Assembly: GCA_963783315.1 (NCBI GenBank)
Contig: CAWAMZ010000008.1
Location: 4,023-68,022 of the forward strand
Source of the DNA: an uncultured Bacteroidales bacterium
Lineage (GTDB): Bacteria > Bacteroidota > Bacteroidia > Bacteroidales > DASQZP01
Direction: 5' to 3'
DNA: 64,000 bases
The position numbers and the translations under genes were made by a program. Shown in pieces: positions 398-63,828 of the stretch (position 1 is the stretch's first letter; every line of letters starts with the position of its first letter). The notes under the pieces were generated by a model. That model was not told the DNA's origin. It did no database searches and saw only the letters and a list, made by a program, of their open reading frames with translations.

Positions 398-943
398 TTA
401 TTGAATTAAAACAATATCAATAAGACCTTTACCTCCCGCATAATCTATTGCACTGCTGTAAACAAAATCTTCAGGATTATATACAAAACCTTCTTTAACC
501 GGATTATTATGTATATAGTCGAGTTTTTGTTGAAGCAACATATTACTATTCAGTTCAATCGGTTTATTATTCTGTTGCCAGAATTGAAAATGTTTATTAT
601 TACTATTCATTTGTCCTGTATTTATCATCATTTTCATAATCCATGTGCGGCTTTCAGAAACATTATTCTTCATCACTTTTCTAATATGTGTGGCAGTGTA
701 ACTCTTCATATCACGTATTATAAATTCCAATGGTGTTACTTCAGAACTTATGATCATATGAACATGACTCGTCATTATTACCCATGCATGAATAACCAGT
801 CCTTTATTTATTTGACAATACCTCCAGCTTTCAAGTAAAATATTTTTGTATTCATTTCTGATAAATACATCGATCCATCCAATTACTGAATAGGTTATAA
901 AATATAAAGAGGAAGGATTATGAAATTTGTAATTTCTGCTCAT
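398..943 (-). CDS. HUH / Y1 tyrosine transposase (REP-associated RAYT or IS200-like TnpA)
   Basis: 181 aa. HUH motif in TSHVHMIISS and catalytic Tyr region LDYIHNNPV, typical of the Y1_Tnp family. Flanked by REP-like hairpins. Confidence 0.85.
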   Translation of the reverse strand: MSRNYKFHNPSSLYFITYSVIGWIDVFIRNEYKNILLESWRYCQINKGLVIHAWVIMTSHVHMIISSEVTPLEFIIRDMKSYTATHIRKVMKNNVSESRTWIMKMMINTGQMNSNNKHFQFWQQNNKPIELNSNMLLQQKLDYIHNNPVKEGFVYNPEDFVYSSAIDYAGGKGLIDIVLIQ

Positions 944-4003: not shown

Positions 4004-4030
4004 ACAAAAGGCCCGGACTACGCCGGGCCT
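4001..4030 (-). terminator. Rho-independent terminator of the [FeFe]-hydrogenase operon
   Basis: Minus-strand AGGCCCGG-CGTAGT-CCGGGCCT followed by TTTTGTTTG, 27 nt after the hydC stop. Confidence 0.8.
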
Positions 4031-4056
4031 CATGTCATTTATAAACCCTAAACCTA

Positions 4057-4539
4057 CTATTCATATTCTTTTAGAATCTCAGCTACTCCTTCGGGCGATA
4101 CACGACCGTAGGTCTTCTCGCCCACCAGTACCACAGGAGCCAGTCCACAGGCACCGACACATCGTAAACAGCTGATGGAAAATTTTCCATCAGCAGTAGT
4201 CTCACCAACCTGTATGCTGAGTTGTTTTTTAAACTCATCCAGTACTTTCTCGGCTCCCCTAACATAGCAGGCTGTACCGGTACAAACTGAGATCGGATAC
4301 TGTCCTTTGGGCAACATGGTAAAGAATGAATAAAACGTTACCACTCCGTATACATGGGCCACAGAAACATTAAGTTCTTCGGCCACTACTTCCTGTACTT
4401 CCGCGGGCAGGTATCCGAAATGACTCTGTACCGCATGCAGTACATTGATCAACTCACCGCCTTTGTTATTGTAGGATTTGCTGATCTCCTTTATTTTGGC
4501 TACATCTCTTTCTTTCAATTCTATTTTTACACTTGACAT
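4057..4539 (-). CDS. hydC: NuoE/HndA-like [2Fe-2S] subunit of the NAD-linked [FeFe]-hydrogenase
   Basis: 160 aa. Thioredoxin-like [2Fe-2S] Cys pattern (SVCTGTACYVRG ... CLRCVGACGLAP). Confidence 0.9.
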   Translation of the reverse strand: MSSVKIELKERDVAKIKEISKSYNNKGGELINVLHAVQSHFGYLPAEVQEVVAEELNVSVAHVYGVVTFYSFFTMLPKGQYPISVCTGTACYVRGAEKVLDEFKKQLSIQVGETTADGKFSISCLRCVGACGLAPVVLVGEKTYGRVSPEGVAEILKEYE

Positions 4540-4566: not shown

Positions 4567-6342
4567 TTAAATAAAGATTTTTTTCACACTCCTGTCAAAA
4601 TAATGTGTATGAAGCAACTCATGAGATTTTTCACTCATGGGTTTTCCCAGGAATTCTTCATATAATTTCAGGATATCGGGGTTTTCATGCGATTTGCGGA
4701 TGAGTTTGCCTTCATCTTCACGATAAATAGCAGCGGCCCTTTTGGCCAGAATTTCCGCATTTCCATGATGCAGTGGTTGTCCACCGCCGCCAATACACCC
4801 ACCAGGACAGGCCATGATCTCGATGGCATGCAGGTTGCTTTTACCAGCACGGATATCTTCCAGCAGTTTGCGTGCATTTCCAAGCCCGTGAGCGATCCCA
4901 ATATTGATCGGCAGTCCGTCAAAATCAACAGTTGCATACCGGATACCATCCATACCACGTAACTGTTTGAAATCAACATTTTCTAGCGGTTTGCCTGTAT
5001 GTATTTCATAGGCTGTACGTGTGGCAGCTTCAATCACACCACCTGTGGTGCCGAAGATAACACCTGCACCGGTTGATTCACCCATTGGCTTGTCAAAATC
5101 TTCATCCGGCAGCGACATAAAGTCGATATTGGCCTGTTTAATCAGGGCAGCCAGCTCCCTTGTAGAGATGGAATAATCAACATCAGGATTGCCGTCTACC
5201 TTGAATTCATCACGCTGACACTCGTATTTCTTGGCCAGGCAGGGCATGATGGATACTACCACCATATTTTCCCTTTTAACACCAATTTTTTCAGCAAAAT
5301 AAGTTTTCGCGATGGGGCCGAACATCTGCTGCGGTGAACGTGCTGTTGATGGTATATCCCGCATATCCGGAAATTGTTTTTCAAAGAAATTTACCCATCC
5401 CGGACAGCAGGATGTAAGAATAGGTAATTTCACAGTATTGTCACCATCCAGATGACGGGTAAGACGGTCGAGCAGTTCGGTCCCTTCTTCCATAATAGTA
5501 AGGTCGGCTGCAAAATCAGTATCAAATACAAAGTTAAATCCAAGCTGACGAAGGGCAGATACCATCTTCCCTGTAACCAGCGTTCCCGGTTCCATGCCAA
5601 ATTCTTCGCCCAGCGCAGCCCTGACGGCAGGTGCAGTCTGCACCACCACAGTTTTTGTCGGATCAGACAAAGCCCTGATTACCTTGGGGGTATGATCCAC
5701 CTCGGTGAGTGCACCGGTCGGACAAACAGCCACGCACTGTCCGCAATAAGTACAGGCAGATTTTTCGAGGTTCATTTCAAAAGGCGGAGCCACAACAGCC
5801 ATAAATCCACGATTTACTGCCGAAAGGGCCCCTACTGTCTGAAAATCGTTGCACATGGTCTCGCACCGGCGACACATGATACATTTATCCATATCTCTGA
5901 TGATGGAAGGGGAAGTATCCAGACGGTAGGTTGACATCTCTGCAAATTCATCATACGGGGTTTCCCTGATTCCCAGTTTAACAGAAAGATCCTGCAGGTC
6001 ACATTTTCCTGACTTTGCACAGGTGAGGCAGTCTTTTGGATGATCAGACAATATGAGTTCCATAACGGTACGCCGGGCATTCAGAACCCGCATTGAATGA
6101 GTCTGTACCACCATGCCCTCATAAACATTTGTGGAACAGGAGGGGGCCAGGTTACGACGGCCTTCAACTTCAACCACACAAATGCGGCAACCACCCGGTT
6201 TATTTTCAATCTTAAGGTCACCCAGGTCCATATAGCACAGCACCGGGATATCAATGCCAATGCTTTTGGCTGCTTTATATATGGTAATACCTTCTTCAAC
6301 CTGGAGTTTTTTGCCGTCTATTGTAATATTAACCAGTTTCAT
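4567..6342 (-). CDS. hydA: [FeFe]-hydrogenase catalytic subunit (M3-type, HydA/HndD)
   Basis: 591 aa. N-terminal 2Fe-2S and 4Fe-4S ferredoxin modules. H-cluster motifs TSCCPGW, MPCLAKKYE and EIMACPGGCIGGGGQP. Confidence 0.95.
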   Translation of the reverse strand: MKLVNITIDGKKLQVEEGITIYKAAKSIGIDIPVLCYMDLGDLKIENKPGGCRICVVEVEGRRNLAPSCSTNVYEGMVVQTHSMRVLNARRTVMELILSDHPKDCLTCAKSGKCDLQDLSVKLGIRETPYDEFAEMSTYRLDTSPSIIRDMDKCIMCRRCETMCNDFQTVGALSAVNRGFMAVVAPPFEMNLEKSACTYCGQCVAVCPTGALTEVDHTPKVIRALSDPTKTVVVQTAPAVRAALGEEFGMEPGTLVTGKMVSALRQLGFNFVFDTDFAADLTIMEEGTELLDRLTRHLDGDNTVKLPILTSCCPGWVNFFEKQFPDMRDIPSTARSPQQMFGPIAKTYFAEKIGVKRENMVVVSIMPCLAKKYECQRDEFKVDGNPDVDYSISTRELAALIKQANIDFMSLPDEDFDKPMGESTGAGVIFGTTGGVIEAATRTAYEIHTGKPLENVDFKQLRGMDGIRYATVDFDGLPINIGIAHGLGNARKLLEDIRAGKSNLHAIEIMACPGGCIGGGGQPLHHGNAEILAKRAAAIYREDEGKLIRKSHENPDILKLYEEFLGKPMSEKSHELLHTHYFDRSVKKIFI

Positions 6343-6360: not shown

Positions 6361-8154
6361 TTAATTAACAAAAATTGCACTGAATTTACACCTCTCAACA
6401 CAGGCACCACATTTGATACACAGTGCTGTATCAATCACATGAGGCTGTTTACGGTCGCCTGAAATAGCGCCCACCGGACAGGCTCTTGCACAGGCTGTAC
6501 ACCCTACGCAGGCTTCAGCATCAATCGTATACTGCATCAATGCCTTACATTGACCTGCCACACATTTGTGATCCACCACATGTGATACATACTCATCACC
6601 AAAATTCTCCAGGGTAGATAAAACCGGGTTTGGTGAAGTCTGTCCCAGGCCGCACAATGAAGTATCTTTGATAACACCGCTGAGGTTCCTCAGCCTGTCA
6701 ATATCATCGGGTGTTCCTTTTCCCAGGGTGATCTTTTCAAGCAGTTCGTACAACCGCTTGTTACCAATACGACAGGGAGAACATTTACCACAGGATTCCT
6801 CCACGGTAAAATCAAGGTAATATTTGGCTACAGACACCATACAATCATCTTCGTCCATCACGATCATACCACCTGATCCCATCATTGATCCCACTGCAAT
6901 AAGGTTGTCATAATCGATCGCCGTTTCAAGGTGTTTTTCAGTCAGGCACCCCCCGGAAGGGCCTCCTGTCTGAACGGCTTTGAATTTTTTTCCGTTCTTA
7001 ATTCCTCCGCCGATTTCAAAAATAACCTCCCGCAATGTAGTTCCCATTGGCACTTCGATAAGCCCTACGTTGTTGATTTTACCGGCAAGTGCAAACACCT
7101 TTGTTCCTTTGCTTTTTTCTGTCCCAATGCTGCTGAACCATTCGGCTCCTTTCATATAAATAACCGGTATGTTGGCAAAGGTTTCCACATTGTTTACATT
7201 GGTTGGCTGCCCCAGATAACCCGATTCGGAAGGGAAAGGAGGTTTGACAGTAGGTTCTCCGCGCATACCCTCCATAGAGTGGATCAGGGCAGTTTCTTCT
7301 CCGCAAACAAAGGCTCCTGCTCCATAACGCAGCTCCACTTCAAAGCTAAACCCTGAACCAAAGATATCCTCGCCCAGCAAACCATACTCCCTGGCCTGCG
7401 TAATGGCAATTTTTAATCTTTTGATAGCAAGCGGGTATTCAGCCCTGATATAGATGAGTCCTTTGGAAGCGCCGATACAGTATCCGCAAATGGCCATCGC
7501 TTCGAGCACACTGTGCGGATCACCTTCCAAAATTGAACGGTCCATAAATGCGCCGGGATCACCTTCATCAGCATTACAAACCACATATTTTTGCTCAGCA
7601 ACACTCTTTCTGGAAATTTCCCATTTCAGACCGGTTGGGAAGCCACCGCCTCCCCTGCCCCTTAATCCGGATTTTTTGATAATATCAATTGACTCTTCGG
7701 GAGAATATTCGCTAAGTACCTTACCCAACGCTTCATACCCCTGACGGGCAATGTATTCATCGATATTTTCGGGGTTAATAAATCCGCAGTTGCGCAAAGC
7801 AATCCTGATCTGCTTTTTATAGAAACCCATGTGACGTGAATCACTAATATGTTCCTTCTTTTCCGGATCAGTATACAACAGGCGGTTTACTTTTCTTCCT
7901 TTAACCACATGTTCGGCAACTATTTCACCGGCATCTTCCGGTTTAACCTCTGTGTAGAAAGTATTATCCGGCATTACCTTAACAATCGGGCCCTTTTCGC
8001 AGAACCCAAAACAGCCGGTCATCACTACCTGTACCTCATTTTCCAGCCCCTTTTCCGACAGTTCATGCTTCAGGTTCTCCACCAGAGAATCACTGGCTGA
8101 TGCCCGGCAACCTGTTCCGCCACAAACCATCAAATGCATATTGTATTTAGCCAT
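6361..8154 (-). CDS. hydB: NuoF-like FMN/NAD(H)-binding subunit (HydB/HndC)
   Basis: 597 aa. GRGGGGFPTGLKWE, ESCGKCSPCR, an N-terminal Trx-like 2Fe-2S domain and C-terminal 2x[4Fe-4S] (CVGCTACARACP, CIKCGACVERC). Confidence 0.95.
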   Translation of the reverse strand: MAKYNMHLMVCGGTGCRASASDSLVENLKHELSEKGLENEVQVVMTGCFGFCEKGPIVKVMPDNTFYTEVKPEDAGEIVAEHVVKGRKVNRLLYTDPEKKEHISDSRHMGFYKKQIRIALRNCGFINPENIDEYIARQGYEALGKVLSEYSPEESIDIIKKSGLRGRGGGGFPTGLKWEISRKSVAEQKYVVCNADEGDPGAFMDRSILEGDPHSVLEAMAICGYCIGASKGLIYIRAEYPLAIKRLKIAITQAREYGLLGEDIFGSGFSFEVELRYGAGAFVCGEETALIHSMEGMRGEPTVKPPFPSESGYLGQPTNVNNVETFANIPVIYMKGAEWFSSIGTEKSKGTKVFALAGKINNVGLIEVPMGTTLREVIFEIGGGIKNGKKFKAVQTGGPSGGCLTEKHLETAIDYDNLIAVGSMMGSGGMIVMDEDDCMVSVAKYYLDFTVEESCGKCSPCRIGNKRLYELLEKITLGKGTPDDIDRLRNLSGVIKDTSLCGLGQTSPNPVLSTLENFGDEYVSHVVDHKCVAGQCKALMQYTIDAEACVGCTACARACPVGAISGDRKQPHVIDTALCIKCGACVERCKFSAIFVN

Positions 8155-8168: not shown

Positions 8169-8576
8169 TTAAGCTTTAGTATCGGGGTCAATAGTTTCGT
8201 AATTGACAGGGATTATTCCGTCTACGAGTTCCCCGTTTTTGATATATTTTTCTATGATCTCGTCCGCCTTCCTGGTATTTACATCGCCAAATACAATTGG
8301 TTCCTGTCCGGGAAGAGTAACTTCAATAGTAGGTTCGGCATAACAATACCCCATGCACCCTGTTTGGGTAACCACTGCATCGATATTTCTTTTTTCCAGC
8401 TCATCAACCAGAAATTCCATGGTTTCTTTTGCTCCTGAAGCAATACCGCAGGTAGCCATCGCCACCTTGATCTGAACATAATTTTCAGGATGATCACTCT
8501 TTTCCCTCAGTTGCATCCGGGATTGCAGGTCGTTTTTTAACTTCCTGAGATCATCAAGGGATCTAACTTTTGCCAT
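8169..8576 (-). CDS. Small thioredoxin-like ferredoxin subunit (HndB/HydD-like)
   Basis: About 135 aa. Similar to the small fourth subunit of tetrameric Hnd/Hyd enzymes. ATG at 8576; the track start at 8582 is TTG. Confidence 0.7.
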   Translation of the reverse strand: MAKVRSLDDLRKLKNDLQSRMQLREKSDHPENYVQIKVAMATCGIASGAKETMEFLVDELEKRNIDAVVTQTGCMGYCYAEPTIEVTLPGQEPIVFGDVNTRKADEIIEKYIKNGELVDGIIPVNYETIDPDTKA

Positions 8577-8675
8577 AGTCAAACAGTTTTGTAGATTTAT
8601 AATGGATTTGTATAAATGTAATGTTAATGTGCATTAATTACTATGATATTTATCGTATTTAACAAACCAGCATTC

Positions 8676-9218
8676 TCATGCTGCCAGTGCCTGAATATTT
8701 TCTCTTATCATTTCTTTCAGAAATTTCAGTATCTCCTTTTGATTGACTGATATTTCCCCCAGCAGGTCTCTTACATCACGGGTATCAAAAATGTATGAAT
8801 CCCTGGGAGTGGTATGCTGGTATGTAAAATCAATATCAGGATTTGCTGCAACAAGCAAAACCAGTACACCTGCTATGTCACCCAGGGCAGGACGATCAAT
8901 ATGATGATATCCAAAGACTGCCGTTACCTTTGTTCCTATATCCGGGACTGACTCAATTTTAAAAGATCCCCCGGTACCTTCAGCCCGTTGCTTAAACAGG
9001 GATAAGCCCAGTCCTACCTTCCGGGTTGTTCTGGAAGTATAAAAAGGATCACTGGCCAGCTGCACTTCTGATGTTGTCATGCCTTTCCCGTTGTCATGAA
9101 TCGTAATCCTGAAAATATTATGCTCCGGATCTTCAAGAATGGCAGTTTCAATCAGGGAAGCCCCGGCAACAATTGAATTCTGCGCCAGATCAAGTATGTG
9201 CAATGCCATTTCTTTCAT
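8676..9218 (-). CDS. Small GHKL-type ATPase / kinase-like protein (HATPase_c only)
   Basis: 180 aa. N-box-like HILDLAQNSIVA, G1 DNGKGM, G2 GLGLSL. No HisKA, sensor or receiver domain. The start overlaps the PHP stop (ATGA). Confidence 0.7.
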   Translation of the reverse strand: MKEMALHILDLAQNSIVAGASLIETAILEDPEHNIFRITIHDNGKGMTTSEVQLASDPFYTSRTTRKVGLGLSLFKQRAEGTGGSFKIESVPDIGTKVTAVFGYHHIDRPALGDIAGVLVLLVAANPDIDFTYQHTTPRDSYIFDTRDVRDLLGEISVNQKEILKFLKEMIRENIQALAA

Positions 9219-9949
9219 AACAGTTCAACACTCCTTCCATTAAGGCCTGCCAGGGCCATTTTTATCTCGTTAAAACTTCTTTCTTCCAGGTGAAAACACA
9301 TCTTATTGGTACCTATATCCTGTAAATAATGTGCATCAGAATTTCTTACCAGTGTTGCATCCTGAATTCCCGGCAGGTGTACTGCTGAAGCACAGTTCTG
9401 CCCGGATATCTCAAGTGCATCGTAACTGAAATTTGCCGGAATAAAACCAAGCTGACTGAAAATACTGTTTTTGGCCTTATCAATATGTGCCGGAATACAG
9501 ATACCCTTTAACTGACGGGTCTTTTCCGCTATCTCATCAAGTCCGGCATGCAATGCTGAAATAAGCAACCTCTCTTCAGTTCTGATAATATTTTCATGTT
9601 CATCAACCTCTACCTGATAGCCAAACAGCTCCGGCCTGTTATTCACAACAGGCAAATGGTTATCCAGAAATACCTGAAAATCATTTAATATTTCCCAGTT
9701 TTCAAAGAACACCAGGCAATGCACCTCTTCCCGGGTATTCACTTCAGTGCCCATCAGAACCATAATATCCTCCCTCCCTGCCAGCTCAGCCACCACCTGA
9801 TTATGTCCGGTAGCATTATGATCAGTGATGCCGATAATATCCAGTTTTTGTTCCTTTGCACGCCTGACAATATTCACCGGACTCATCTCCAGATCTCCGC
9901 AGGGTGAGAGTACAGTATGTATATGTATGTCGGCGGTAAATTTTTTCAT
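9215..9949 (-). CDS. PHP-domain phosphoesterase
   Basis: 244 aa. PHP metal motifs HIHTVLSPCGD and ITDHN, plus later His/Asp residues. Confidence 0.75.
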   Translation of the reverse strand: MKKFTADIHIHTVLSPCGDLEMSPVNIVRRAKEQKLDIIGITDHNATGHNQVVAELAGREDIMVLMGTEVNTREEVHCLVFFENWEILNDFQVFLDNHLPVVNNRPELFGYQVEVDEHENIIRTEERLLISALHAGLDEIAEKTRQLKGICIPAHIDKAKNSIFSQLGFIPANFSYDALEISGQNCASAVHLPGIQDATLVRNSDAHYLQDIGTNKMCFHLEERSFNEIKMALAGLNGRSVELL

Positions 9950-10278
9950 TTCAGCAGGTTATAGAGTTTTCCGGCTGTTTCAAATGTCGCATCCGTTGTT
10001 CCCAGCACAGGAATTCCTTCATCACCGGCATGCTTCAGCATATCTTCCTCTGGCTGAAAACCTTTGACCAGTATTACTGAAGAGAGATCTTTCAACGATG
10101 CAATAGCCGCCACATTTTTATGAGTTTGCAGGGTTATCCAGACCTCTCCTTCACTGGCGTTTCCCATCACATCACTCAACAGGTCGGAAACATATCCTCC
10201 CTTTACTTCCCTTTCCAATCCACTCTCACCACCATATACCCGGAGATGAAGCTGTTTTACAAGATCAGATACTTTCAT
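9946..10278 (-). CDS. DRTGG-domain protein
   Basis: 110 aa. SDLLSDVMGNASEGEVWITLQTHKNVAAIASL... matches stand-alone DRTGG proteins found next to clostridial hydrogenase genes (from memory). Confidence 0.7.
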   Translation of the reverse strand: MKVSDLVKQLHLRVYGGESGLEREVKGGYVSDLLSDVMGNASEGEVWITLQTHKNVAAIASLKDLSSVILVKGFQPEEDMLKHAGDEGIPVLGTTDATFETAGKLYNLLK

Positions 10279-11650
10279 GATCCGCTCCTTTCTTATTACA
10301 ATTTTTATTCAACCGGTCCTTCCCCCAGATCTCTTCAATAATATCCAGGGCGTGCTCCGGACTCAGTTTGTGATTTATTTCCATTACTTTCTGGAGAAAA
10401 ACACAATGAGATATATTGGCATTTCCCTGTACAACATCTTCAGCAAGAGCCTGACAGGTAGGTGCTCCACATCCACCACAATCAAACCCGGGTAAAAAAC
10501 ACATGATATGCCGCTGCTTTTTCATTTTTTCCATTGCTACGCTCAGATCCTGATCGAGCTGCATTGAAGAACGGGGGTCCACTTTATCCAGCTTTATATG
10601 CTTAATCAGATAATTGCGGTAATTATCAATATCTCTGGCAGAATAACTGTCATCAGGTGTTTTTATGCTGTTTGCAGCTCTGTTTCTGAGTCTTTCAACA
10701 GTGAGAAATTTATTGCCCGAGGTAAGAATACCACCGGCACAACTTTCATCACATGCCCGCATTTCCAGAAAATCAACTCCTTTGATCTCCCCGTTTTCAA
10801 TCTTTTCCAGGAATTCAATCACGCTGTGAATGCCATCAATTGCCAGCGATCGCTTTCCTGTGGCTGAGGCCTCTCCGTGTGTAAGCGACCACAGCATTTC
10901 CCTGTCAGTCAGCTGTGAATGGTCTGCTATTTTATGATTGCCTGTTGTTCCTTTTTTAATTCGTTTATACAGCCTGTTGTATACTGAGTTCATGTTAATC
11001 ACCCCGTTAAAAGGCGACTGGTTTTCTCCTACCGGACTTTTGATAGCTGCAATTTTGGCAGCACATGGGGTGACATAAAACAAACCAATCTCTTCCTTCC
11101 TGTATCCCTCATTTAGTAATTTTTTGCGGTAATAGGCTGCAGCAATATCCAGTGGCGGCTTTAGCAATACAATATTTTCAACCAGAGATGGAAAATTCAC
11201 CTGTATCAAACGCACAACAGCCGGACAGAAAGCAGAAATAAGGGGCCGGTGTTCTCTGTGATCTTCAAGATATTTGTTTAGTTCACTGCTCAAAAGATCG
11301 ACACAGTTTTCAATCTCGTATACATGAGTAAATCCCAGTTCATAAAGGGTCTGGTATATAATTTCAATATTAATTTCTTCAGGGAACTGTCCGGTAAGTA
11401 CAGCGGGCATCAATGCAACACGGCAGGAGTAGGAGAAAATACTGCTGAAATCATCTTCTTCGACATAGATGGCTGAAACCGGACAAACACGATAACACTG
11501 TCCACAGTCGATACATTTATTATTGTATATATTGGCTTTACCATGTTTCACACGAATTGCCTCCGTTGGGCAGACACTCATGCAGTGAGCACAGCCAATA
11601 CAGTTATCTTCCTGTACTTTTAACGCATGGTGAAAAATGATCTTTTCCAT
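10265..11650 (-). CDS. [FeFe]-hydrogenase-like H-cluster-domain protein, putative sensory (HydS-like)
   Basis: 461 aa. 2x[4Fe-4S] (CIGCAHCMSVCP, CIDCGQCYRVCP). Degenerate H-cluster motifs SAFCPAV, TPCAAK and EMRACDESCAGG. C-terminal CGGCGAPTC-x16-C (Cx2Cx4Cx16C). Confidence 0.8.
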   Translation of the reverse strand: MEKIIFHHALKVQEDNCIGCAHCMSVCPTEAIRVKHGKANIYNNKCIDCGQCYRVCPVSAIYVEEDDFSSIFSYSCRVALMPAVLTGQFPEEINIEIIYQTLYELGFTHVYEIENCVDLLSSELNKYLEDHREHRPLISAFCPAVVRLIQVNFPSLVENIVLLKPPLDIAAAYYRKKLLNEGYRKEEIGLFYVTPCAAKIAAIKSPVGENQSPFNGVINMNSVYNRLYKRIKKGTTGNHKIADHSQLTDREMLWSLTHGEASATGKRSLAIDGIHSVIEFLEKIENGEIKGVDFLEMRACDESCAGGILTSGNKFLTVERLRNRAANSIKTPDDSYSARDIDNYRNYLIKHIKLDKVDPRSSMQLDQDLSVAMEKMKKQRHIMCFLPGFDCGGCGAPTCQALAEDVVQGNANISHCVFLQKVMEINHKLSPEHALDIIEEIWGKDRLNKNCNKKGADHESI

Positions 11651-11651
11651 A

Positions 11652-12080
11652 TCAGCCAGCTTGCTGTTTTAAATAATGTAATATCTGAACGCGGGTACCC
11701 GAACCCGGCTTTGATGTTACAATAAGCTCATCCGAATTCCTTTTTATATTCGGGAGCCCCATACCTGCGCCAAATCCCATCTCACGTACCTGCCGGGAAG
11801 CTGTTGAAAAGCCTTCCTGCATAGCCTGATCAATATCTGCAATACCAGGTCCTTCATCCTCAATAACGATGGTAATTTTTGCTGTATCTATATCTACATT
11901 TATAATACCGTGGTAAGCGTGAGCAACCACATTTACCTCTGCTTCGTAAAGAGCCACCACAATTTTTTTGATCAGTCTGAAATCGATATTCAATTGCTTA
12001 AGTATTTTTTTCAGATGACTTGAGGCTACACCTGCATTTGTAAAATCACCACCGTTAATCTGATATTCAAAATGCATCAT
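11652..12080 (-). CDS. RsbW/SpoIIAB-like anti-sigma-type Ser kinase fold (HATPase_c only)
   Basis: 142 aa. EAEVNVVAHAY (N box), EDEGPGI (G1), GFGAGMGLPNI (G2). Confidence 0.7.
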   Translation of the reverse strand: MMHFEYQINGGDFTNAGVASSHLKKILKQLNIDFRLIKKIVVALYEAEVNVVAHAYHGIINVDIDTAKITIVIEDEGPGIADIDQAMQEGFSTASRQVREMGFGAGMGLPNIKRNSDELIVTSKPGSGTRVQILHYLKQQAG

Positions 12081-12089
12081 GATGGTCCT

Positions 12090-12476
12090 TTAATAAAGCG
12101 GTTTAAAACCGGCACCATAGAGGATACCAGCGGTTCTGAACATTGAATAACTGCATTCCATCAAAACCATGTTATTTTCAACTGCCAGTTCAATCATTTC
12201 TTTGGTAGCATGCTTGTCCCTTACAAATACTATGTGAGTTATATCGGCCATCTCGGCAGTCCTGACTGCCTGCAGATTGGTCAAACCCGTTATCAGCATT
12301 ATTTCGCTCCCTTCTATGGTCAGCACATCACTCATGAGATCCGAAGCAAAAGCATAATTTACTGTACATTCCATATCCTCACTGCCACATATGATTCTTG
12401 CATTGAGCAGACGGGCAATCTCTCCAATTTTCATTTCCTGTTTTATTCCTGTTAAATCTGAGTTGATTTTCATCAT
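12090..12476 (-). CDS. DRTGG-domain protein (first gene of the operon)
   Basis: About 128 aa, paralogous to 9946-10278 (ASDLMSDVLTIEGSEIMLITGLTNLQAVRTAEMA). The track start at 12479 is TTG; ATGs lie at 12476 and 12473. Confidence 0.65.
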   Translation of the reverse strand: MMKINSDLTGIKQEMKIGEIARLLNARIICGSEDMECTVNYAFASDLMSDVLTIEGSEIMLITGLTNLQAVRTAEMADITHIVFVRDKHATKEMIELAVENNMVLMECSYSMFRTAGILYGAGFKPLY

Positions 12477-12559
12477 CAATTTATACTGGAGCGTTATTTA
12501 TTAAACATCAACTAATCGATTTTTTATTTTCTTATTCCAGGACAAAAGTATATATTCTT

Positions 12560-12594
12560 TTGTTATTTTAATAACATTGTTATCATAATAACAA
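12560..12594. promoter_or_regulatory. Two abutting Rex-like 18-bp palindromes upstream of the [FeFe] operon
   Basis: TTGTTATTTTAATAACAT (12560-12577) and TTGTTATCATAATAACAA (12577-12594; perfect TTGTTA-N6-TAACAA). About 85-118 bp upstream of the ATG at 12476. Confidence 0.45.
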
Positions 12595-13072: not shown

Positions 13073-14887
13073 ATGGGAACCAATGTTCAAAATATCATTG
13101 AAAAATTCCACAAGGATCCTACCCGGTTAATGGACATACTCATTGATATACAGGCCGAAATCGGATATATTCCTGAAGAAGCAGTTATTCAAATCTCGCA
13201 GGAACTGGATATTTCCAGGGTGGATGTGGAACAAACAATCTCCTTTTATCATTTTTTCTCCCAGACACCCACAGGTACATTCAACATATACCTGAATAAC
13301 TCTGCAGTAGCCAATATGATGGGCAGAGCTGAGATAGCTTCTACCCTGGAAAAGGAAGCAGGCTGCAAATTCGGGGAAGTGTCTCCGGACGGACTGATTG
13401 GGTTGTTCGATACCAGCTGTATCGGTATGAATGACCAGGAACCGGCAGCCATTATCAACGGAATCATCTTTACCAAGCTTACTCCTTTCCGTATAAAAGA
13501 ACTGGTAAAAGATATTAAATCAGGCAAGAGTACGCACGACCTTTTTGTTGAAAGCTATGGAGACGGCATGAATAATTCCGAGCTGCTTCAGGCTATGGTA
13601 TATAATAATATACGGAAGAAAGGACCGGTTCTTTCAGATGATTACACCCCGGGTATTGTTATCTGGAAACATCTGCCTGCGCTAACGCCTGAAAAAGTAA
13701 TTGAAGAAATTAAATCATCCAACATCAGGGGACGGGGCGGTGCAGGATTTCCAACCGGACTAAAATGGGAATTCTGTCGCAAAGCTCCCGGAGAAAAGAA
13801 ATTCATTTTCTGCAATGCGGATGAAGGCGAACCAGGAACATTTAAAGACCGTGTAATCCTGACTGAACGGCCCAAGCTGCTGTTTGAAGGAATGGTTATC
13901 GCTGCTTATGCAGTGGGCGCATCTGAGGGTATTTTATATCTGCGCTATGAATATAAGTACCTTGAACAGTATCTTGAAGGTATTTTGCAGGGTGCACGCG
14001 ACCGGAACTTGTTGGGTAAGGACATTGGAGGTATTAAGGGATTCGATTTTGACATTCGCATTCAGTTTGGAGCTGGTGCATATGTTTGCGGAGAAGAATC
14101 TGCTCTTATCGAATCGGCAGAGGGTAAGCGTGGTGAACCAAGAGACCGTCCGCCTTTCCCCGTTGAAAAAGGTTACCTGGGCTGTCCTACTGTTGTAAAC
14201 AATGTAGAAACCCTTTGTTCAGCAGTAAAAGTAATGCTTTATGGTGGCAACTGGTATCGTTCATTTGGGACCAGTGATTCTACAGGCACAAAGGTTTTGA
14301 GCATTTCAGGTGACTGCAAATATCCCGGCGTCTATGAAGTTGAGTGGGGATTCAGTGTCAGGAGCATACTTGAAATGGTTGGCGCTGTGCAGGACGAGGT
14401 ACAGGCTGTGCAGGTTGGAGGACCATCAGGGGCTGTGATTGCACCCAATGAATTCGACCGTACTTTATGCTATACCGATCTTTCTACCGGAGGGTCACTG
14501 ATTATTATCGGAAAACAACGTGATCTGCTCAAAGACATTGTCCTGAATTTTTCAGAATTTTTCATGGAGGAATCCTGTGGTTCATGTGTGCCTTGCCGGA
14601 CACTCACAGTGCTATATCGCGACACTCTGAAGAAAATTGTAGATGGCAGGGGTACCCGTAAAGATGTAGAAGACATGATCAGTTGGGGAAAGATTATGAA
14701 AGCAAACAGATGTGGACTCGGACAAACGGCTGCCAACCCGGTCCTGTCCAGCATTAAAAACTTCAGGGAACTTTATGAAGAAAGATTACTGCCCGGCAAT
14801 GGATTTGAAAGTAATTTTGATCTCGAAGAGGCAGTAAAGGAATCCTGCGAAGTTACCCACCGAAGTCCAATCATTAAAGAAGCATAA
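13073..14887 (+). CDS. hoxF: NAD-reducing [NiFe]-hydrogenase diaphorase subunit HoxF (NuoE-like plus NuoF-like)
   Basis: 604 aa. GRGGAGFPTGLKWE, ESCGSCVPCR and an N-terminal NuoE-like domain. Confidence 0.9.
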   Translation: MGTNVQNIIEKFHKDPTRLMDILIDIQAEIGYIPEEAVIQISQELDISRVDVEQTISFYHFFSQTPTGTFNIYLNNSAVANMMGRAEIASTLEKEAGCKFGEVSPDGLIGLFDTSCIGMNDQEPAAIINGIIFTKLTPFRIKELVKDIKSGKSTHDLFVESYGDGMNNSELLQAMVYNNIRKKGPVLSDDYTPGIVIWKHLPALTPEKVIEEIKSSNIRGRGGAGFPTGLKWEFCRKAPGEKKFIFCNADEGEPGTFKDRVILTERPKLLFEGMVIAAYAVGASEGILYLRYEYKYLEQYLEGILQGARDRNLLGKDIGGIKGFDFDIRIQFGAGAYVCGEESALIESAEGKRGEPRDRPPFPVEKGYLGCPTVVNNVETLCSAVKVMLYGGNWYRSFGTSDSTGTKVLSISGDCKYPGVYEVEWGFSVRSILEMVGAVQDEVQAVQVGGPSGAVIAPNEFDRTLCYTDLSTGGSLIIIGKQRDLLKDIVLNFSEFFMEESCGSCVPCRTLTVLYRDTLKKIVDGRGTRKDVEDMISWGKIMKANRCGLGQTAANPVLSSIKNFRELYEERLLPGNGFESNFDLEEAVKESCEVTHRSPIIKEA

Positions 14888-14890
14888 ATC

Positions 14891-15604
14891 ATGAATAAAC
14901 TGATTAAACTTAATATCGACGGCAAGGAATGCATGGCTACCAAAGGGCAGTATATTGTTGAAGCGGCTCGTGAAAATGACATTTACATTCCAACCCTTTG
15001 CAATATTCCAAATCTGAAACCACGCGGAGCCTGCCGTATCTGTACTGTAAATGTAAACGGCAAACCCATGACATCCTGTACAACTCCCGTTTCCGAAGGA
15101 ATGGTAGTAGAAACAGCCCTGCCTGAGATTATTGATCTAAGAAAATCAATTGTAGAACTGTTGTTTGTGGAAGGAAATCACTTTTGTCCTTCTTGCGAAA
15201 GAAGCGGAAATTGTGAATTGCAGGCCCTGGCCTACCGTTTCAGAATGATGGTGCCCAGGTTTCCTTACCGGTTTCAGCAGCGAAACATCGAAGCTAATAA
15301 TTCAAAACTTATCAAGGATCATAACCGCTGCATTCTTTGTAAACGCTGTATCAGAGCAATCAAGGACGATGAAGGCAGGGGTATCTTTGCCTTCAAACGG
15401 AGAGGACATCAGGTAGAGATCAGTATTGATCCTGAACTGGCAAAGAACCTGACAGATGAGCTTGCCGACAGGGCCGCCGAAATTTGTCCAGTGGGAGCTT
15501 TGCTGAGGAAGGAAAAAGGATATGAGATCCCGATTGGGGAACGAAAATATGACAAAAATCCCATTGGAAGTGAAATAGAAAAATTCGCACATTCAAAACC
15601 ATAA
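14891..15604 (+). CDS. hoxU: Diaphorase Fe-S subunit HoxU (NuoG N-terminal-like)
   Basis: 237 aa. 2Fe-2S (CNIPNLKPRGACRIC...C) and 4Fe-4S motifs (CPSCERSGNC, CILCKRC). Confidence 0.9.
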   Translation: MNKLIKLNIDGKECMATKGQYIVEAARENDIYIPTLCNIPNLKPRGACRICTVNVNGKPMTSCTTPVSEGMVVETALPEIIDLRKSIVELLFVEGNHFCPSCERSGNCELQALAYRFRMMVPRFPYRFQQRNIEANNSKLIKDHNRCILCKRCIRAIKDDEGRGIFAFKRRGHQVEISIDPELAKNLTDELADRAAEICPVGALLRKEKGYEIPIGERKYDKNPIGSEIEKFAHSKP

Positions 15605-15616
15605 AAAAGAATTATC

Positions 15617-16165
15617 ATGAGCAAAGCTATAGTTGCGACTACCTCTCTGGCCGGATGTTTCGGATGTCACATGTCTCTGCTGGACATTGACGAGAAAATT
15701 CTTGATCTTATTGAACTGGTTGAATTTAACAAATCCCCAATCAATGATATCAAGACATTTACCAAAGATTGTGATATTGGCCTTATTGAGGGAGGTTGTT
15801 GCAATTCAGAGAATGTACACGTATTAAAAGAATTTCGTAAAAGGTGTAAGATCCTGATTTCGGTAGGTGAATGTGCAATAATGGGTGGATTACCGGCCAT
15901 GCGCAACGGCATCCCGGTCAGGGAATGTCTGGAAGAAGCATACCTGAATGGCCCTTCGGTTCTGTCTAATACAGAAAAAATCATGCCCAATGATGAAGAG
16001 CTGCCCATGATACTGGACAAAGTATATCCCTGTCATGAGCTGGTAAAGATCGATTACTTTCTGCCAGGCTGTCCTCCCAGAGCCGGATTGATCTGGGACG
16101 CCTTAACCGCCCTGCTTACCGGCAAAGAGATGGAGTTACCCTATGAAGTTGTTAAATTTGATTAA
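15617..16165 (+). CDS. hoxY: [NiFe]-hydrogenase small subunit HoxY
   Basis: 182 aa. GCFGCHMS proximal-cluster motif, later GECA and GCPP. Confidence 0.9.
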   Translation: MSKAIVATTSLAGCFGCHMSLLDIDEKILDLIELVEFNKSPINDIKTFTKDCDIGLIEGGCCNSENVHVLKEFRKRCKILISVGECAIMGGLPAMRNGIPVRECLEEAYLNGPSVLSNTEKIMPNDEELPMILDKVYPCHELVKIDYFLPGCPPRAGLIWDALTALLTGKEMELPYEVVKFD

Positions 16166-16176
16166 TTGAAAGAACA

Positions 16177-17628
16177 ATGGCACAAAAGATTACAATAGAA
16201 CCGGTTACCAGAGTTGAAGGACACGGTAAAGTAACCATACATCTGGATGACCAGCACCGTATCACCCAGACAAGACTACATATCGTTGAATTCCGGGGTT
16301 TTGAAAGGTTTATCCAGGGGCGTCCTTACTGGGAAGCTCCCGTACTGGTTCAAAGACTGTGCGGGATTTGCCCGGTCAGCCATCACCTGGCATCCGCCAA
16401 AGCAATGGATGTGATAGTAGGAGCCGGCACTGGTGACGGCCTTACTCCTACCGGAGAGAAAATGCGACGACTGATGCATTATGGCCAGATATTTCAGTCA
16501 CATGCGCTTCATTTTTTCCATCTTGCCTCTCCTGATCTCCTATTTGGTATCGACAGTGATCCGGCTACCAGAAATGTGATTGGGGTCGCAATGAAACACA
16601 AAGACCTGGCCGTTCAGGGGGTCATGATGCGTAAATTCGGTCAGGAAATAATTGAAGCAACCGCAGGAAAGAAAATTCATGGCACCGGAGCCATTCCAGG
16701 GGGCATCAATAAACACCTTACCAAAGAGGAAAAGGATAAATTCTTAAATGGTCCGGATCCGATGAACATTGATAAGATGATTGAATGGTCCCAGGGTGCA
16801 CTTGCTTTCTTTAAGGAATACCACAAGCAAAATAAAGCCGTAATTGACCAGTTTTTTGAATTTCCTTCCAGCTATCTCAGTCTGGTCAGGAAAGATGGAG
16901 CACTTGACCTGTATCATGGTGTGATAAGGGCAGTTGACAGCGAAGGAAAGAAAATTCTTCACGATGTTGACTATCAAAACTACCTTGATTATATTGATGA
17001 AGAAGTACGGTCCTGGAGCTACATGAAATTTCCGTATCTGAAACAACTTGGAAAAAAGGATGGCTCCTACACAGTAGGTCCGCTTGCCCGTATGAACACT
17101 ATTGATTTTATTCCATCACCGCTGGCTCAGAAAGAGTTTGAAATTTTCAGGTCCTATGCAAACGGCAAACCAAGCAATCGTCCGATGCACCAGCACTGGG
17201 CCAGGCTGATCGAAATGCTTCATTCGGCAGAAATGATGAAGCAATTATTGAATGACCAGGATCTGTTAACCGGCGAACTGGTTACCAAAGGAATAAAAAC
17301 AAATGAGGGTGTTGGACTCCTGGAAGCGCCACGGGGTACTCTTTTCCATCATTACCGGATCAATCAGGATGACCAGATTGAGATGGCCAACCTGATTGTA
17401 TCTACTACCAATAACAATGAAGCCATGAATAAGGCAGTCAACATGGTAGCTAATAAAACAATGACAGGAGAGGCTAAAATCACTGAAGGAATGATGAATG
17501 CGGTAGAAGTAGCCATCCGTTCTTATGACCCGTGTTTAAGCTGTGCCACACATGCACTTGGCCAAATGCCGCTGGAAATATCTCTCTTTAACAGCAGGGA
17601 CGAATTAATTGATGTCCGCAGAAAATAA
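16177..17628 (+). CDS. hoxH: [NiFe]-hydrogenase large subunit HoxH (group 3d-like)
   Basis: 483 aa. N-terminal RLCGICPVSHH and C-terminal DPCLSCATH, followed by a cleavable extension. Confidence 0.95.
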   Translation: MAQKITIEPVTRVEGHGKVTIHLDDQHRITQTRLHIVEFRGFERFIQGRPYWEAPVLVQRLCGICPVSHHLASAKAMDVIVGAGTGDGLTPTGEKMRRLMHYGQIFQSHALHFFHLASPDLLFGIDSDPATRNVIGVAMKHKDLAVQGVMMRKFGQEIIEATAGKKIHGTGAIPGGINKHLTKEEKDKFLNGPDPMNIDKMIEWSQGALAFFKEYHKQNKAVIDQFFEFPSSYLSLVRKDGALDLYHGVIRAVDSEGKKILHDVDYQNYLDYIDEEVRSWSYMKFPYLKQLGKKDGSYTVGPLARMNTIDFIPSPLAQKEFEIFRSYANGKPSNRPMHQHWARLIEMLHSAEMMKQLLNDQDLLTGELVTKGIKTNEGVGLLEAPRGTLFHHYRINQDDQIEMANLIVSTTNNNEAMNKAVNMVANKTMTGEAKITEGMMNAVEVAIRSYDPCLSCATHALGQMPLEISLFNSRDELIDVRRK

Positions 17629-17632
17629 TACA

Positions 17633-18142
17633 ATGGAGCATAGTGATCGCATACTGGTATATGGTTATGGCAATCCGGGCCGGCAGGATGACGGACTGGC
17701 TGCAGAATTGATAAGACGTCTGGATGACTGGAAGCACAAACATTTTTTGGCTTCCGCCATTTCCACCGATTGTAATTATCAGTTGAATATTGAAGATGCA
17801 GCCGTAATATTTCCTTATGGCCTGGTAGTATTTGCCGATGCATCAGATGAGGAAATTGACGATTTCAAATTAACCCCTATCACTCCGGATTCTGATATTT
17901 CATTTACTATGCATGCGGTTAATCCTGCCTATGTTGTGAATTTATGCAGGGAAATATATGGAAACGACCCTGAAGCATACCTGTTACACATTAAAGGTTA
18001 TCAATGGGAGATGAAAGAAGAACTGACGCAGAAAGCAGTTGCCAGCTTAGATAAAGCTTTCGACTTTTTAATTAGCTTCCTGCAGGAAAAAAGAGGTATT
18101 ACCAGATGCTGTCATGAACGGAAACAGCAACAAAGTTTATAA
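17633..18142 (+). CDS. hoxW: Hydrogenase maturation endopeptidase HoxW
   Basis: ILVYGYGNPGRQDDGLA is the HybD/HoxW signature. Alternative starts at 17609 (TTG) and 17612 (ATG) overlap hoxH. 17633 lies just after the hoxH stop. Confidence 0.8.
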   Translation: MEHSDRILVYGYGNPGRQDDGLAAELIRRLDDWKHKHFLASAISTDCNYQLNIEDAAVIFPYGLVVFADASDEEIDDFKLTPITPDSDISFTMHAVNPAYVVNLCREIYGNDPEAYLLHIKGYQWEMKEELTQKAVASLDKAFDFLISFLQEKRGITRCCHERKQQQSL

Positions 18143-22872: not shown

Positions 22873-22982
22873 CGTGTTACTTTTTATTGTTTTCGTGCTA
22901 ACAAAATTATACAAAAATATCTCATTCACAAAGCAGCAATTCCGTTTTAAAGGAATACCTTTGCCACAAATATCAGTAAAAC

Positions 22983-23828
22983 ATGTTTGCGTTAGGAAAA
23001 TACCATAATTTTGAAATAGTTAAGGAACTTGACTTCGGCATATACCTGGACGGAGAAGAACTGGGTGAAATACTTATGCCAACCAAGTATGTACCGGAGA
23101 ATGTACAAACCGGAGATGTAATTACAGCATTTCTTTACCGCGACTCGGAAGACAGATTAATTGCCACAACTGAAAAGCCTCTTGCCGAGCTAGGGGATTT
23201 TGCCCTTCTCAATGTTGTTGCGGTTACCACTTCAGGTGCATTTTTATACTGGGGACTGGCCAAAGACCTTTTTGTACCCTTCCGTGAACAAAAAGAAAAA
23301 ATGCAGGAAGGACAATCCTATCTGGTGAAAATTTATATGGATGATGAGACAGACAGACTGATGGCTTCCTCATATCTCGATAAATTTCTAAATAATGTAC
23401 CAGCTCAGTATACCCCTGGAGATCAGGTGGATCTTATCATTGCTGAAAAGACCGAGTTGGGATACAAAGCGATAATTAACGGCATCCATTCAGGAATTTT
23501 ATATGAGAATGAAATATTTCAGCCTCTGTCACCGGGTCAGCAGATAACCGGTTATATCAAAAAGTTGAGAGAGGACGAAAAAATTGACCTGAGTTTGCAA
23601 CCCTTTGGTTACCGGAAAATTGAAGACCTTGAGAAAGAGCTAACCATGCTTTTGCAGCAGAATAATGACTTTCTTCCGCTGAATGATAAGAGCGATCCGG
23701 AAGAAATAAAAAATCTGTGCCAGATGAGTAAGAAAAACTTCAAAAAAGTAGTGGGCAGTCTCTATAAAAAAAGAATAGTTACTATTACGCCTGAAGGAAT
23801 TAGCCTGGTTAAACAAACCGGAAATTAA
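22983..23828 (+). CDS. S1 RNA-binding-domain protein (CvfB/YitL family)
   Basis: 281 aa. Repeated S1-like segments and a C-terminal winged-helix-like KKNFKKVVGSLYKKRIV. Confidence 0.7.
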   Translation: MFALGKYHNFEIVKELDFGIYLDGEELGEILMPTKYVPENVQTGDVITAFLYRDSEDRLIATTEKPLAELGDFALLNVVAVTTSGAFLYWGLAKDLFVPFREQKEKMQEGQSYLVKIYMDDETDRLMASSYLDKFLNNVPAQYTPGDQVDLIIAEKTELGYKAIINGIHSGILYENEIFQPLSPGQQITGYIKKLREDEKIDLSLQPFGYRKIEDLEKELTMLLQQNNDFLPLNDKSDPEEIKNLCQMSKKNFKKVVGSLYKKRIVTITPEGISLVKQTGN

Positions 23829-57185: not shown

Positions 57186-57254
57186 ACCAGATATAAATTA
57201 TTCATGTTTCATTACCTTTAAACAGCAAACAACATGAAGAAAAACAACTTTCTG

Positions 57255-58013: not shown

Positions 58014-58014
58014 A

Positions 58015-59052: not shown

Positions 59053-59132
59053 TTTATATTTTTTTAATCCTGATTAACTAAATTATAACTCATTACCAAA
59101 ATTTTCCATTAAGAGCCACCCGTTCTCGAAAT

Positions 59133-60125: not shown

Positions 60126-60127
60126 TT

Positions 60128-61156: not shown

Positions 61157-61173
61157 ATTACACTATGTCGTAC

Positions 61174-62082: not shown

Positions 62083-62083
62083 T

Positions 62084-62494: not shown

Positions 62495-62512
62495 CTGTAA
62501 TACTATATTTTA

Positions 62513-63508: not shown

Positions 63509-63828
63509 ATCCGTATTTGTTTGTTTATTTTTGTGAAGCTGTCTGAAATTTTGTCTGTTAAATTTATTTTTAGGTTTCACAAAATTAATGTTCTCGGCTT
63601 AACCAACGGCACAGAAAATGCTAATATTTTTAAAATGGTTGTTAAAATTTGTTAAACCAGGCTTCCCAAAAGAAGCAGCAAGGTACTGACAAATTTTCAT
63701 ATAAAAATAAATTGATAATACGTTAAGCAAATTAAATCTTTCTTCGTTTTGTACCTTTTGTAATAAATAAAGCAGGAACAGCCTAATAATAAAATATTTA
63801 ATATTTTTGTGCTGAAAACACAACTCAC

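Follow-up and report, generated by a model that had tools for sequence, protein, structure and literature searches.

A conserved six-gene module around a putative sensory [FeFe] hydrogenase upstream of a bifurcating-type hydrogenase operon in an uncultured Bacteroidales bacterium

Group D (M2e) putative sensory [FeFe] hydrogenases have been the subject of spectroscopic work since 2019-2020, and one of them, TamHydS of Thermoanaerobacter mathranii, is treated in the literature as a putative sensor. It interconverts H+ and H2 reversibly, undergoes an H2-induced conformational change, and has low catalytic rates; in its high H2 affinity and its stabilised Hred state it is like the regulatory [NiFe] enzymes. 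Earlier comparative papers found group D hydrogenases adjoining protein kinases and upstream of bifurcating hydrogenases, Land et al. described a histidine-kinase-like ATPase adjoining TamHydS, and Parabacteroides goldsteinii is represented among the 70 group D enzymes of a published list. In the literature searched, no publication turned up in which a sensory hydrogenase was combined with a kinase and a phosphatase, none was found that linked the DRTGG domain to hydrogenases, and no treatment of the DRTGG and PHP genes of group D clusters was found. The locus presented here lies on a 64-kb stretch of contig CAWAMZ010000008.1 (assembly GCA_963783315.1; hereafter the window, meaning the whole 64,000 nucleotides analysed) from an uncultured Bacteroidales bacterium. 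It consists of a block of six genes on the minus strand, encoding two DRTGG proteins (DRTGG1 and DRTGG2), two GHKL proteins (GHKL1 and GHKL2), a PHP protein and a putative sensory hydrogenase (HydS), directly upstream of hydD-hydB-hydA-hydC, with which it forms a 10-gene unit. An earlier note on this DNA, made from the letters alone, had called the mechanism of such a module uncharacterised, and a 2026 paper still describes the identification of group D interaction partners as critical (PMC13104023). The question addressed here is how group D sensory hydrogenases signal, and the outcome is a short list of testable protein pairs. What is added to the published picture is the division of the module into two triads, the PHP-GHKL2 and GHKL2-HydD fusions, the DRTGG fold, the natures of GHKL1 and GHKL2, and the tandem Rex-type operators.

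Related loci were gathered by a genome scan with a single protein, which returned Bacteroidales-type metagenome-assembled genomes (MAGs) only, and by a metagenome scan with a cross-phylum alignment, of which the 80 loci closest to the window were kept. Together they yielded 142 related loci, essentially all of Bacteroidales type, which were annotated by tblastn and hidden Markov models. The full order DRTGG1-GHKL1-HydS-DRTGG2-PHP-GHKL2-HydD-HydB-HydA-HydC was present in 50 loci and the six-gene order DRTGG1-GHKL1-HydS-DRTGG2-PHP-GHKL2 in 72, most of the other loci being cut by contig ends. DRTGG1-GHKL1 stood directly upstream of HydS in all but one of the evaluable loci (113/114), and DRTGG2-PHP-GHKL2 directly downstream of it in 76 of 103, with 14 more loci carrying this second set elsewhere in the locus. 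The linkage of DRTGG1-GHKL1 to HydS is obligatory, and the arrangement is not a product of chance.

The cross-phylum context was obtained by looking up three TamHydS homologues. Thermoanaerobacter, Caldicellulosiruptor bescii and Coprothermobacter platensis possessed the same set in the same order, with hydC between the PHP and GHKL2 genes, so that the GHKL2 gene of Bacillota is flanked by hydC and hydD. The linkage to hydABC across phyla, which the earlier note had mentioned for Clostridia and Thermoanaerobacterales, was thereby found in Thermoanaerobacter, Caldicellulosiruptor and Coprothermobacter; its remark that the presence of the module in Bacteroidota was unusual did not hold, given hundreds of Bacteroidales homologues and the place of P. 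goldsteinii among published group D enzymes. In view of the gene order shared across loci and phyla, and of the earlier papers, the cluster represents an orthologous copy of an arrangement already known, and there is nothing unusual in finding it in Bacteroidota.

Two triads make up the module, DRTGG1-GHKL1-HydS (the first) and DRTGG2-PHP-GHKL2 (the second). The second triad lay upstream of the first in rumen/gut-type and Lentimicrobiaceae loci, where hydDBAC was on the opposite strand, each triad travelling as a unit in these rearranged loci. Two DRTGG-GHKL pairs had been proposed previously, but triads describe the module better, as the gene after DRTGG2 is that of PHP, the protein that also occurs fused to GHKL2. 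Two loci encoded two HydS paralogues each (L046, 31-11380; L113, 1551-11380), one followed by DRTGG2-PHP-GHKL2 and the other preceded by DRTGG1-GHKL1, which suggests that each triad could have its own sensor.

The genes are tightly packed, as had been described from the sequence. The six open reading frames (ORFs) lay at the positions given in the earlier note (12479-12090 for the first, the other five as in Table 1), with ATGA overlaps at 9218-9215 and 9949-9946 and a 14-nt overlap at 10278-10265, all read directly from the sequence, and with spacings of 1 and 9 nt within the block and 93 nt before hydD, derived from the coordinates. The 4-nt and 14-nt overlaps indicate translational coupling. 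The ORF finder extended DRTGG1 to a TTG at 12479; as its orthologues have 114 aa and conservation sets in at the ATG at 12434, this ATG is most likely the start. The start of hydD is probably the ATG at 8576. All six domain assignments of the earlier note were confirmed, five by Pfam matches above threshold and that of DRTGG1, the exception, through its predicted structure.

The H-cluster protein, previously labelled only as HydS-like, is assigned by its sequence to the named and biochemically studied group D (M2e) class. It matched two Fer4 domains, Fe_hyd_lg_C (2e-22) and PF04060 (5.7e-13) in Pfam, and was 37% identical to TamHydS over 420 aa (E = 1e-99), the latter protein having been rebuilt from the codon-optimised gene, damaged by optical character recognition, in the supplement of PMC13104023. 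In an alignment spanning Bacteroidota, Bacillota and Coprothermobacterota, 16 of 16 cluster cysteines were invariant: eight in the two N-terminal [4Fe-4S] motifs (C17, C20, C23, C27, C46, C49, C52, C56), the four H-cluster ligands C142, C196, C300 and C304, which aligned with the FCP, PCAAK and ACxxxC motifs of TamHydS, and four in the C-terminal Cx2Cx4Cx16C motif, here CGGCGAPTCx16C. Among the features by which the literature defines the class, all of which are present in HydS, are the absence of Cys299 and the replacement of Met353 by Ser or Thr (PMC8163306). In HydS the proton-relay Cys299 is replaced by Phe (motif SAFCP; Ala in TamHydS) and the Met353 position is occupied by Thr (motif VTPCAAK / TPCAAK; Ser in TamHydS). 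No PAS domain was matched in HydS by Pfam. By homology with TamHydS, HydS would bind an H-cluster, react with H2 slowly and with high affinity, and report the H2 partial pressure.

Alternatively, HydS could itself be the target of regulation, or could function as a ferredoxin-linked hydrogenase, its activity being controlled by GHKL1 and DRTGG1 in answer to a different cue (ATP or energy charge, for example); the module would in that case amount to an auxiliary hydrogenase, under regulation, beside HydABC. The reversible activity of TamHydS is compatible with such a role, a 2013 genome survey tabulated the gene under ferredoxin-linked hydrogenases, and HydS holds the position of sigma F in the spoIIAA-spoIIAB-sigF order. 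DRTGG domains also occur in allosteric energy-sensing regulators (the regulatory region of CBS-pyrophosphatase; N-terminal matches in SpxR and Pta). Nevertheless, the rates of TamHydS are low and Cys299 is gone here too, its H2 affinity and stabilised Hred state are those of regulatory [NiFe] enzymes, and the group D enzyme is nearly always linked to a highly active HydABC. We consider this explanation unlikely, and favour a sensory HydS.

HydS would work in a tight triad with DRTGG1 and GHKL1, in which the order of an antagonist-like protein, a kinase or anti-factor, and a target mirrors spoIIAA-spoIIAB-sigF. GHKL1 matched HATPase_c_2 in Pfam (6e-12) and aligned over its full length with the anti-sigma F factor SpoIIAB (1TIL, 6.5e-8), and also with RsbW (6M36); its score against the NCBIfam spIIAB equivalog was 69 bits, below the cut-off of 135. 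E46, N50, the DxGxG motif (G1) and the G2 box were conserved. In the proposed mechanism, GHKL1 would either bind HydS or phosphorylate a DRTGG protein at the invariant Ser of a DLxS motif, in an H2-dependent manner.

The DRTGG1 Pfam match was below threshold (19 bits against 25.2). Its AlphaFold2 model, built from 115 sequences, had a mean predicted local distance difference test score (pLDDT) of 94 and was matched by Foldseek to the DRTGG protein AF1212 (2IOJ) with a template modelling (TM) score of 0.80. DRTGG2 matched both DRTGG (1.1e-6) and Hpr_kinase_N (1.4e-5) in Pfam. The DLMSDV motif of DRTGG1 was invariant and the DLLS motif of DRTGG2 was kept in Bacteroidales and Bacillota, so both paralogues share an invariant DL(M/L)S at a strand-loop-helix junction from Bacteroidales to Bacillota. 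A STAS-like antagonist was considered and rejected on structural grounds: a search of the PDB with the DRTGG1 model matched DRTGG and HPr-kinase N-domains only, no STAS domain was among the top 50 structures, receiver-domain matches were insignificant (TM 0.34), and Pfam found no STAS domain in the module. The earlier idea of DRTGG as an RsbV-like antagonist or substrate is therefore without structural support, the modelled fold being the canonical DRTGG / HPr-kinase N-domain; DRTGG may still be a functional analogue of STAS.

Two outputs of the module have to be weighed, one on transcription and one on the hydrogenase complex itself. A DNA-binding, sigma, receiver or HisKA domain was absent from the module at every locus examined, no STAS, PAS, HisKA or HTH domain was present among window ORFs of at least 200 aa, and no sigma factor was detected in the module or among those ORFs. 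The earlier statement that the window lacks STAS/RsbV, PAS, HisKA, receiver and DNA-binding domains thus holds for the module; it fails for the window with respect to one receiver domain, in an unrelated gene. That gene, 15 kb from the module (27066-28364, minus strand), encodes a receiver domain joined to the catalytic domain of an adenylate/guanylate cyclase. The conclusion that the module matches neither a two-component system nor partner switching of the classical kind stands, as HisKA, STAS, PP2C and a sigma factor are all lacking.

GHKL1 may nevertheless act as an anti-sigma or anti-activator protein, released when HydS senses H2, on a transcription factor encoded elsewhere. Its homologues include anti-sigma factors, the window shows no more than 64 kb of the genome, and regulatory [NiFe] hydrogenases act on transcription; Land et al. 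also report an AraC-type regulator beside the T. mathranii cluster. Yet no regulator was conserved beside the module in about 140 Bacteroidales loci, C. bescii and Coprothermobacter, and a 263-aa gene upstream in Thermoanaerobacter, which has no Pfam match, was not conserved. Sigma factors of the SigF/SigB type are, to our knowledge, not typical of Bacteroidales. Conserved Rex operators, moreover, already account for transcriptional control, and we regard a transcriptional output through such a factor as quite unlikely. Since the module comes with no gene for a DNA-binding or sigma-type output, and GHKL2 is found among the structural genes, a post-translational output, exerted on the HydABC(D) complex, appears most likely.

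Upstream of DRTGG1, two tandem 18-bp palindromes of the Rex type (Table 1) were found with 0 and 1 mismatch, where 0.57 matches would be expected across the whole window. Of 59 genome loci, 44 had a site with at most two mismatches in the 300 nt preceding DRTGG1, mostly as a pair spaced 17 nt apart; the background density of such sites was 0.22 per kb. The same search pattern recovered the Rex site of C. bescii, 39 nt upstream of Athe_1295 and before hydC, which is listed as tested in vitro by electrophoretic mobility shift assay (PMC6391272). In view of these conserved operators, the unit is most likely transcribed in response to the NADH/NAD+ ratio, which Rex senses; acting through the tandem operators, Rex would set transcription of the whole unit separately from, and independently of, the module proteins. 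Cotranscription of the module with the hydrogenase genes, as had been proposed, is plausible in the window. However, a further Rex-type site was present in the GHKL2-hydD gap in 18 of 70 loci (none in the gap of the window), and in C. bescii the validated Rex site marks a separate five-gene hyd unit. A tblastn search of the window with a B. subtilis Rex query found no rex gene. Two Bacteroidales MAGs, however, encoded homologues sharing 31-36% identity with B. subtilis Rex at a distance of 6-7 kb from the module (L029, 1615-2217; L031, 2685-3287). A third Rex-type match in the window (22887-22904, plus strand, 1 mismatch), which a CvfB-like S1-domain gene (22983-23828) follows after about 80 nt, may be due to chance.

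About 30 Bacteroidales loci also carried a second, divergent HydC'-HydB'-HydA' set immediately upstream of DRTGG1 and on the same strand (e.g. L008, 5685-8897; L012, 5428-8952; L019, 5408-8873), 31-53% identical to the subunits of the window, with Rex-type sites occupying the gap between this set and DRTGG1.

In the second triad, PHP matched its Pfam family at 8e-8 and conserved the catalytic motifs HxH, TDHN, E..H, PAH and SDAH. Its weak relatives were the pAp phosphatase (3',5'-bisphosphate nucleotidase), RNase AM and EndoQ, as well as the PHP domains of TrlF/Ppl, and no PHP-type protein-tyrosine phosphatase matched it at E <= 1. The protein-phosphatase role previously given to PHP is unproven, its detectable relatives being nucleotide or nucleic-acid phosphoesterases. 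This spectrum of relatives would suit a small-nucleotide signal, in which PHP hydrolyses a nucleotide or short RNA (pAp, a dinucleotide or nanoRNA), the GHKL proteins are ATP switches and the DRTGG proteins are nucleotide-responsive adaptors. The overall resemblance of GHKL2 to MutL-type ATPases points the same way, as does the conserved acidic/Ser loop that the DRTGG model places at the C-terminal edge of the parallel sheet, a typical ligand site. GHKL1, on the other hand, resembles protein kinases of the SpoIIAB/RsbW type and has intact catalytic residues, and the module encodes no messenger cyclase or synthetase. In the work on 3L2B/3L31, concerning the regulatory region of CBS-pyrophosphatase, the CBS domains and not DRTGG reportedly bind the nucleotide. 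A signal of this kind appears improbable, a little more so than control through a factor encoded elsewhere.

GHKL2 matched HATPase_c (1.9e-12) and HATPase_c_3 in Pfam and belongs to a sharply bounded family, in which 253 representative clusters matched end to end at E < 1e-30, nearly all of them 178-190 aa long. In its AlphaFold2 model (pLDDT 94.4), the first 100 residues matched histidine-kinase CA domains by Foldseek, and the whole length aligned with the N-terminal ATPase regions of MutL, PMS2 and topoisomerase VI-B (TM 0.53-0.58). Because of this whole-length alignment, GHKL2 may be an ATP-driven, MutL-like switch and not a kinase, which weakens the kinase role it had been given. A circularly permuted mini histidine kinase was also considered: the His of an H-box-like HIDRxPLGD motif was present in 108 of 131 sequences (82%) and lay in a loop of the model, and no HisKA match was obtained in the module with Pfam; this candidate was rejected.

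Fusions surfaced only in a search of representatives of 1.8 billion proteins, none being present among the module genes of the 146 fetched loci. The PHP-GHKL2 fusions came from three assemblies and fell into two clusters (P0420/P0511; P0483) with less than 50% identity between them; they provide reasonable evidence that PHP and GHKL2 act jointly. One further protein, P0452, joined GHKL2 to a HydD-like domain 32% identical to the HydD of the window (E = 2e-23). The latter fusion, the MutL/Hsp90-superfamily architecture of GHKL2 and the interleaving of these genes with structural genes in Bacillota would also suit factors for the assembly, repair or protection of HydABC, with GHKL2 as a chaperone-like ATPase, PHP as a cofactor-processing esterase and HydS as a scaffold or electron-entry module. 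Active HydABC has, however, been purified and solved without module proteins (e.g. PDB 8A6T, 7P5H). A SpoIIAB-type kinase would be without precedent in maturation, and HydS keeps a complete H-cluster site. The T. tengcongensis enzyme, for its part, is said to hold HydA-D only. Such an assembly role seems very unlikely.

The composite model that we favour is a switch that responds to H2, depends on ATP and acts on HydABC(D) at the post-translational level, with Rex setting transcription. The DRTGG2-PHP-GHKL2 triad would supply an opposing or resetting activity to the first one, through a metal-dependent phosphoesterase and an ATP-driven GHKL switch that are sometimes a single polypeptide. The contacts between these proteins, the phosphorylation and its target are inferred from what was observed directly, namely gene content, homologies, folds, conservation, fusions and operators. 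Several observations weigh against the model. The fold of the DRTGG1 model is not STAS-like by comparison with the PDB, the detectable relatives of PHP act on nucleotides or nucleic acids and not on proteins, and the whole-length MutL/TopoVI-B likeness of GHKL2 means that it is possibly no kinase. The GHKL2-HydD fusion, known from one contig, might reflect a frameshift artefact; in some loci the first triad occurs without the second and is followed by 10 kb of unrelated sequence; and a 64-kb window leaves room for a transcription factor encoded in trans. Every RsbW-type kinase known to us has STAS substrates. On balance, the composite model stands at about even chances. A more specific form, a phospho-switch of a kind not described before, is possible though doubtful: the SpoIIAB-like kinase would phosphorylate DRTGG in place of STAS partners, at the invariant Ser of DLxS, PHP physically coupled to GHKL2 would reset the system, and the bifurcating hydrogenase would be gated post-translationally on H2 sensed by HydS. 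If true, DRTGG would acquire its first defined role in signalling, and group D hydrogenases their missing signal-transduction chain.

The five accessory proteins, conserved with the sensor across three phyla, are testable candidates for the signalling partners of group D hydrogenases. Bifurcating HydABC sets H2 release by fermenters in guts, rumens, sediments and digesters, and the many Bacteroidales copies make the circuit common in gut and environmental Bacteroidota, beyond thermophilic Clostridia.

Table 1. Features of the module, its upstream region and the hydrogenase operon, in window coordinates.
Feature	Position	Strand	Description
Rex-type operators	12560..12594	.	two tandem operators, TTGTTAN6TAACAA, one shared base; 125-160 nt upstream of the DRTGG1 start
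Candidate -7 element	12543..12550	-	Bacteroidetes-type, TAnnTTTG; consensus match, downstream of the operators
DRTGG1	12090..12434	-	114-aa stand-alone DRTGG-fold protein
GHKL1	11652..12080	-	142-aa SpoIIAB/RsbW-like GHKL protein (serine-kinase / anti-factor type)
HydS	10265..11650	-	461-aa group D (M2e) putative sensory [FeFe] hydrogenase
DRTGG2	9946..10278	-	110-aa stand-alone DRTGG protein
PHP	9215..9949	-	244-aa PHP-family metal-dependent phosphoesterase
GHKL2	8676..9218	-	180 aa; Bergerat ATP-binding domain and family-specific C-terminal alpha/beta domain
HydD	8169..8582	-	small thioredoxin-like ferredoxin-type subunit; weak 2Fe-2S_thioredx match
HydB	6361..8154	-	NuoF-like FMN/NADH subunit; N-terminal 2Fe-2S domain, C-terminal 2x[4Fe-4S]
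HydA	4567..6342	-	catalytic [FeFe] hydrogenase subunit of an NADH-dependent (bifurcating-type) enzyme
HydC	4057..4539	-	NuoE-like 2Fe-2S subunit; 2Fe-2S_thioredx 2e-52
Terminator-like hairpin	4008..4031	-	T-rich tail, 9-bp stem with 7 G-C pairs; after hydC, ends the 10-gene unit

The structural subunits downstream of the module fit an NADH-dependent, bifurcating-type HydABC by sequence, bifurcation itself being predicted. HydA scored 906 bits against NCBIfam NF040763 (NADH-dependent [FeFe] hydrogenase; cut-off 765), while HydD matched an NCBIfam 2Fe-2S ferredoxin at 6.9e-9 and was 66-81% identical across related loci. The hairpin at 4031-4008 was the sole strong terminator-like site on this strand between 13.0 and 4.0 kb; apart from it, scans of the region for sigma-70-type promoters and terminators gave chance-level counts. 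A weak hairpin with a 6-bp stem (8668-8683, minus strand) overlaps the GHKL2 stop just before the 93-nt gap, and may be an attenuator of read-through or a chance occurrence. No RNA element in the window matched Rfam at the gathering threshold.

On the other side of the module, across an intergenic region of about 600 nt, a divergent operon (13073-18142, plus strand) encoded a group 3-type NAD-linked [NiFe] hydrogenase, with genes for a NuoE-NuoF fusion (604 aa), a HoxU-like protein, the small subunit, the large subunit and a maturation protease. The regulatory module thus sits between two different hydrogenase operons. Adjacency of a Hox [NiFe] operon to the module was found in none of the other fetched loci and is specific to this genome. 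Elsewhere in the window, an ORF at 398-943 (minus strand) weakly matched the IS200-like (Y1 transposase) family, at an E value of 1.6e-4 that falls short of the Pfam threshold, and a Bat-type aerotolerance operon (55368-63580, minus strand) encoded BatA-like VWA proteins, TPR proteins, BatD and a MoxR AAA ATPase. Bat-type operons are typical of Bacteroidota, in agreement with the taxonomic placement.

Among described systems, the HoxBC-HoxJ-HoxA and HupUV-HupT-HupR systems share with this locus the logic of a slow, high-affinity hydrogenase as H2 sensor together with a GHKL-family protein; they rely on a PAS histidine kinase and a DNA-binding response regulator, neither of which is found here. 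With the partner-switching modules SpoIIAA-SpoIIAB-SpoIIE and RsbV-RsbW-RsbU, the locus shares a full-length SpoIIAB/RsbW homologue with its catalytic residues (GHKL1), a gene for a small alpha/beta protein just upstream of it, a candidate target just downstream and a phosphoesterase nearby, although DRTGG takes the place of STAS, PHP that of PP2C, and there is no sigma factor. The Rex regulon of Clostridia, Thermoanaerobacterales and Caldicellulosiruptor likewise has an 18-bp palindrome of TTGTTAAnnnnTTAACAA type upstream of hyd genes, whereas here the operators are tandem, lie ahead of regulatory genes and occur in Bacteroidales, and no rex gene is present in the window.

The group C (M2f) systems (TmHydS; HfsB of T. 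saccharolyticum; HydS of R. albus) also possess an H-cluster sensor with a C-terminal four-cysteine cluster, kinase-like and phosphatase-like genes alongside a bifurcating hydrogenase, and a Rex site, which precedes hfsABCD. Their sensors have a fused PAS domain and their phosphatase is of the PP2C/SpoIIE type, in contrast to the present locus, which has no PAS domain but a PHP-type phosphoesterase, two DRTGG proteins and a second GHKL protein. The TamHydS cluster differs from this one in the residues at positions 299 (Phe here, Ala there) and 497 (Arg here, Leu there), in a tail about 45 residues shorter than that of HydS, and in the position of hydC, located here at the 3' end of the operon and not between PHP and GHKL2; the host here is a mesophile-type Bacteroidales and a divergent [NiFe] Hox-like operon is present. 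The two proteins nevertheless share their domain order (two N-terminal [4Fe-4S] motifs, H-domain, C-terminal Cx2Cx4Cx16C, no PAS), the loss of Cys299, the change of Met353 to Ser or Thr and a variable residue at Met497, and the T. mathranii-type flanks share the order DRTGG, RsbW-like GHKL, DRTGG, PHP, GHKL, HydD, HydB and HydA with the cluster described here.

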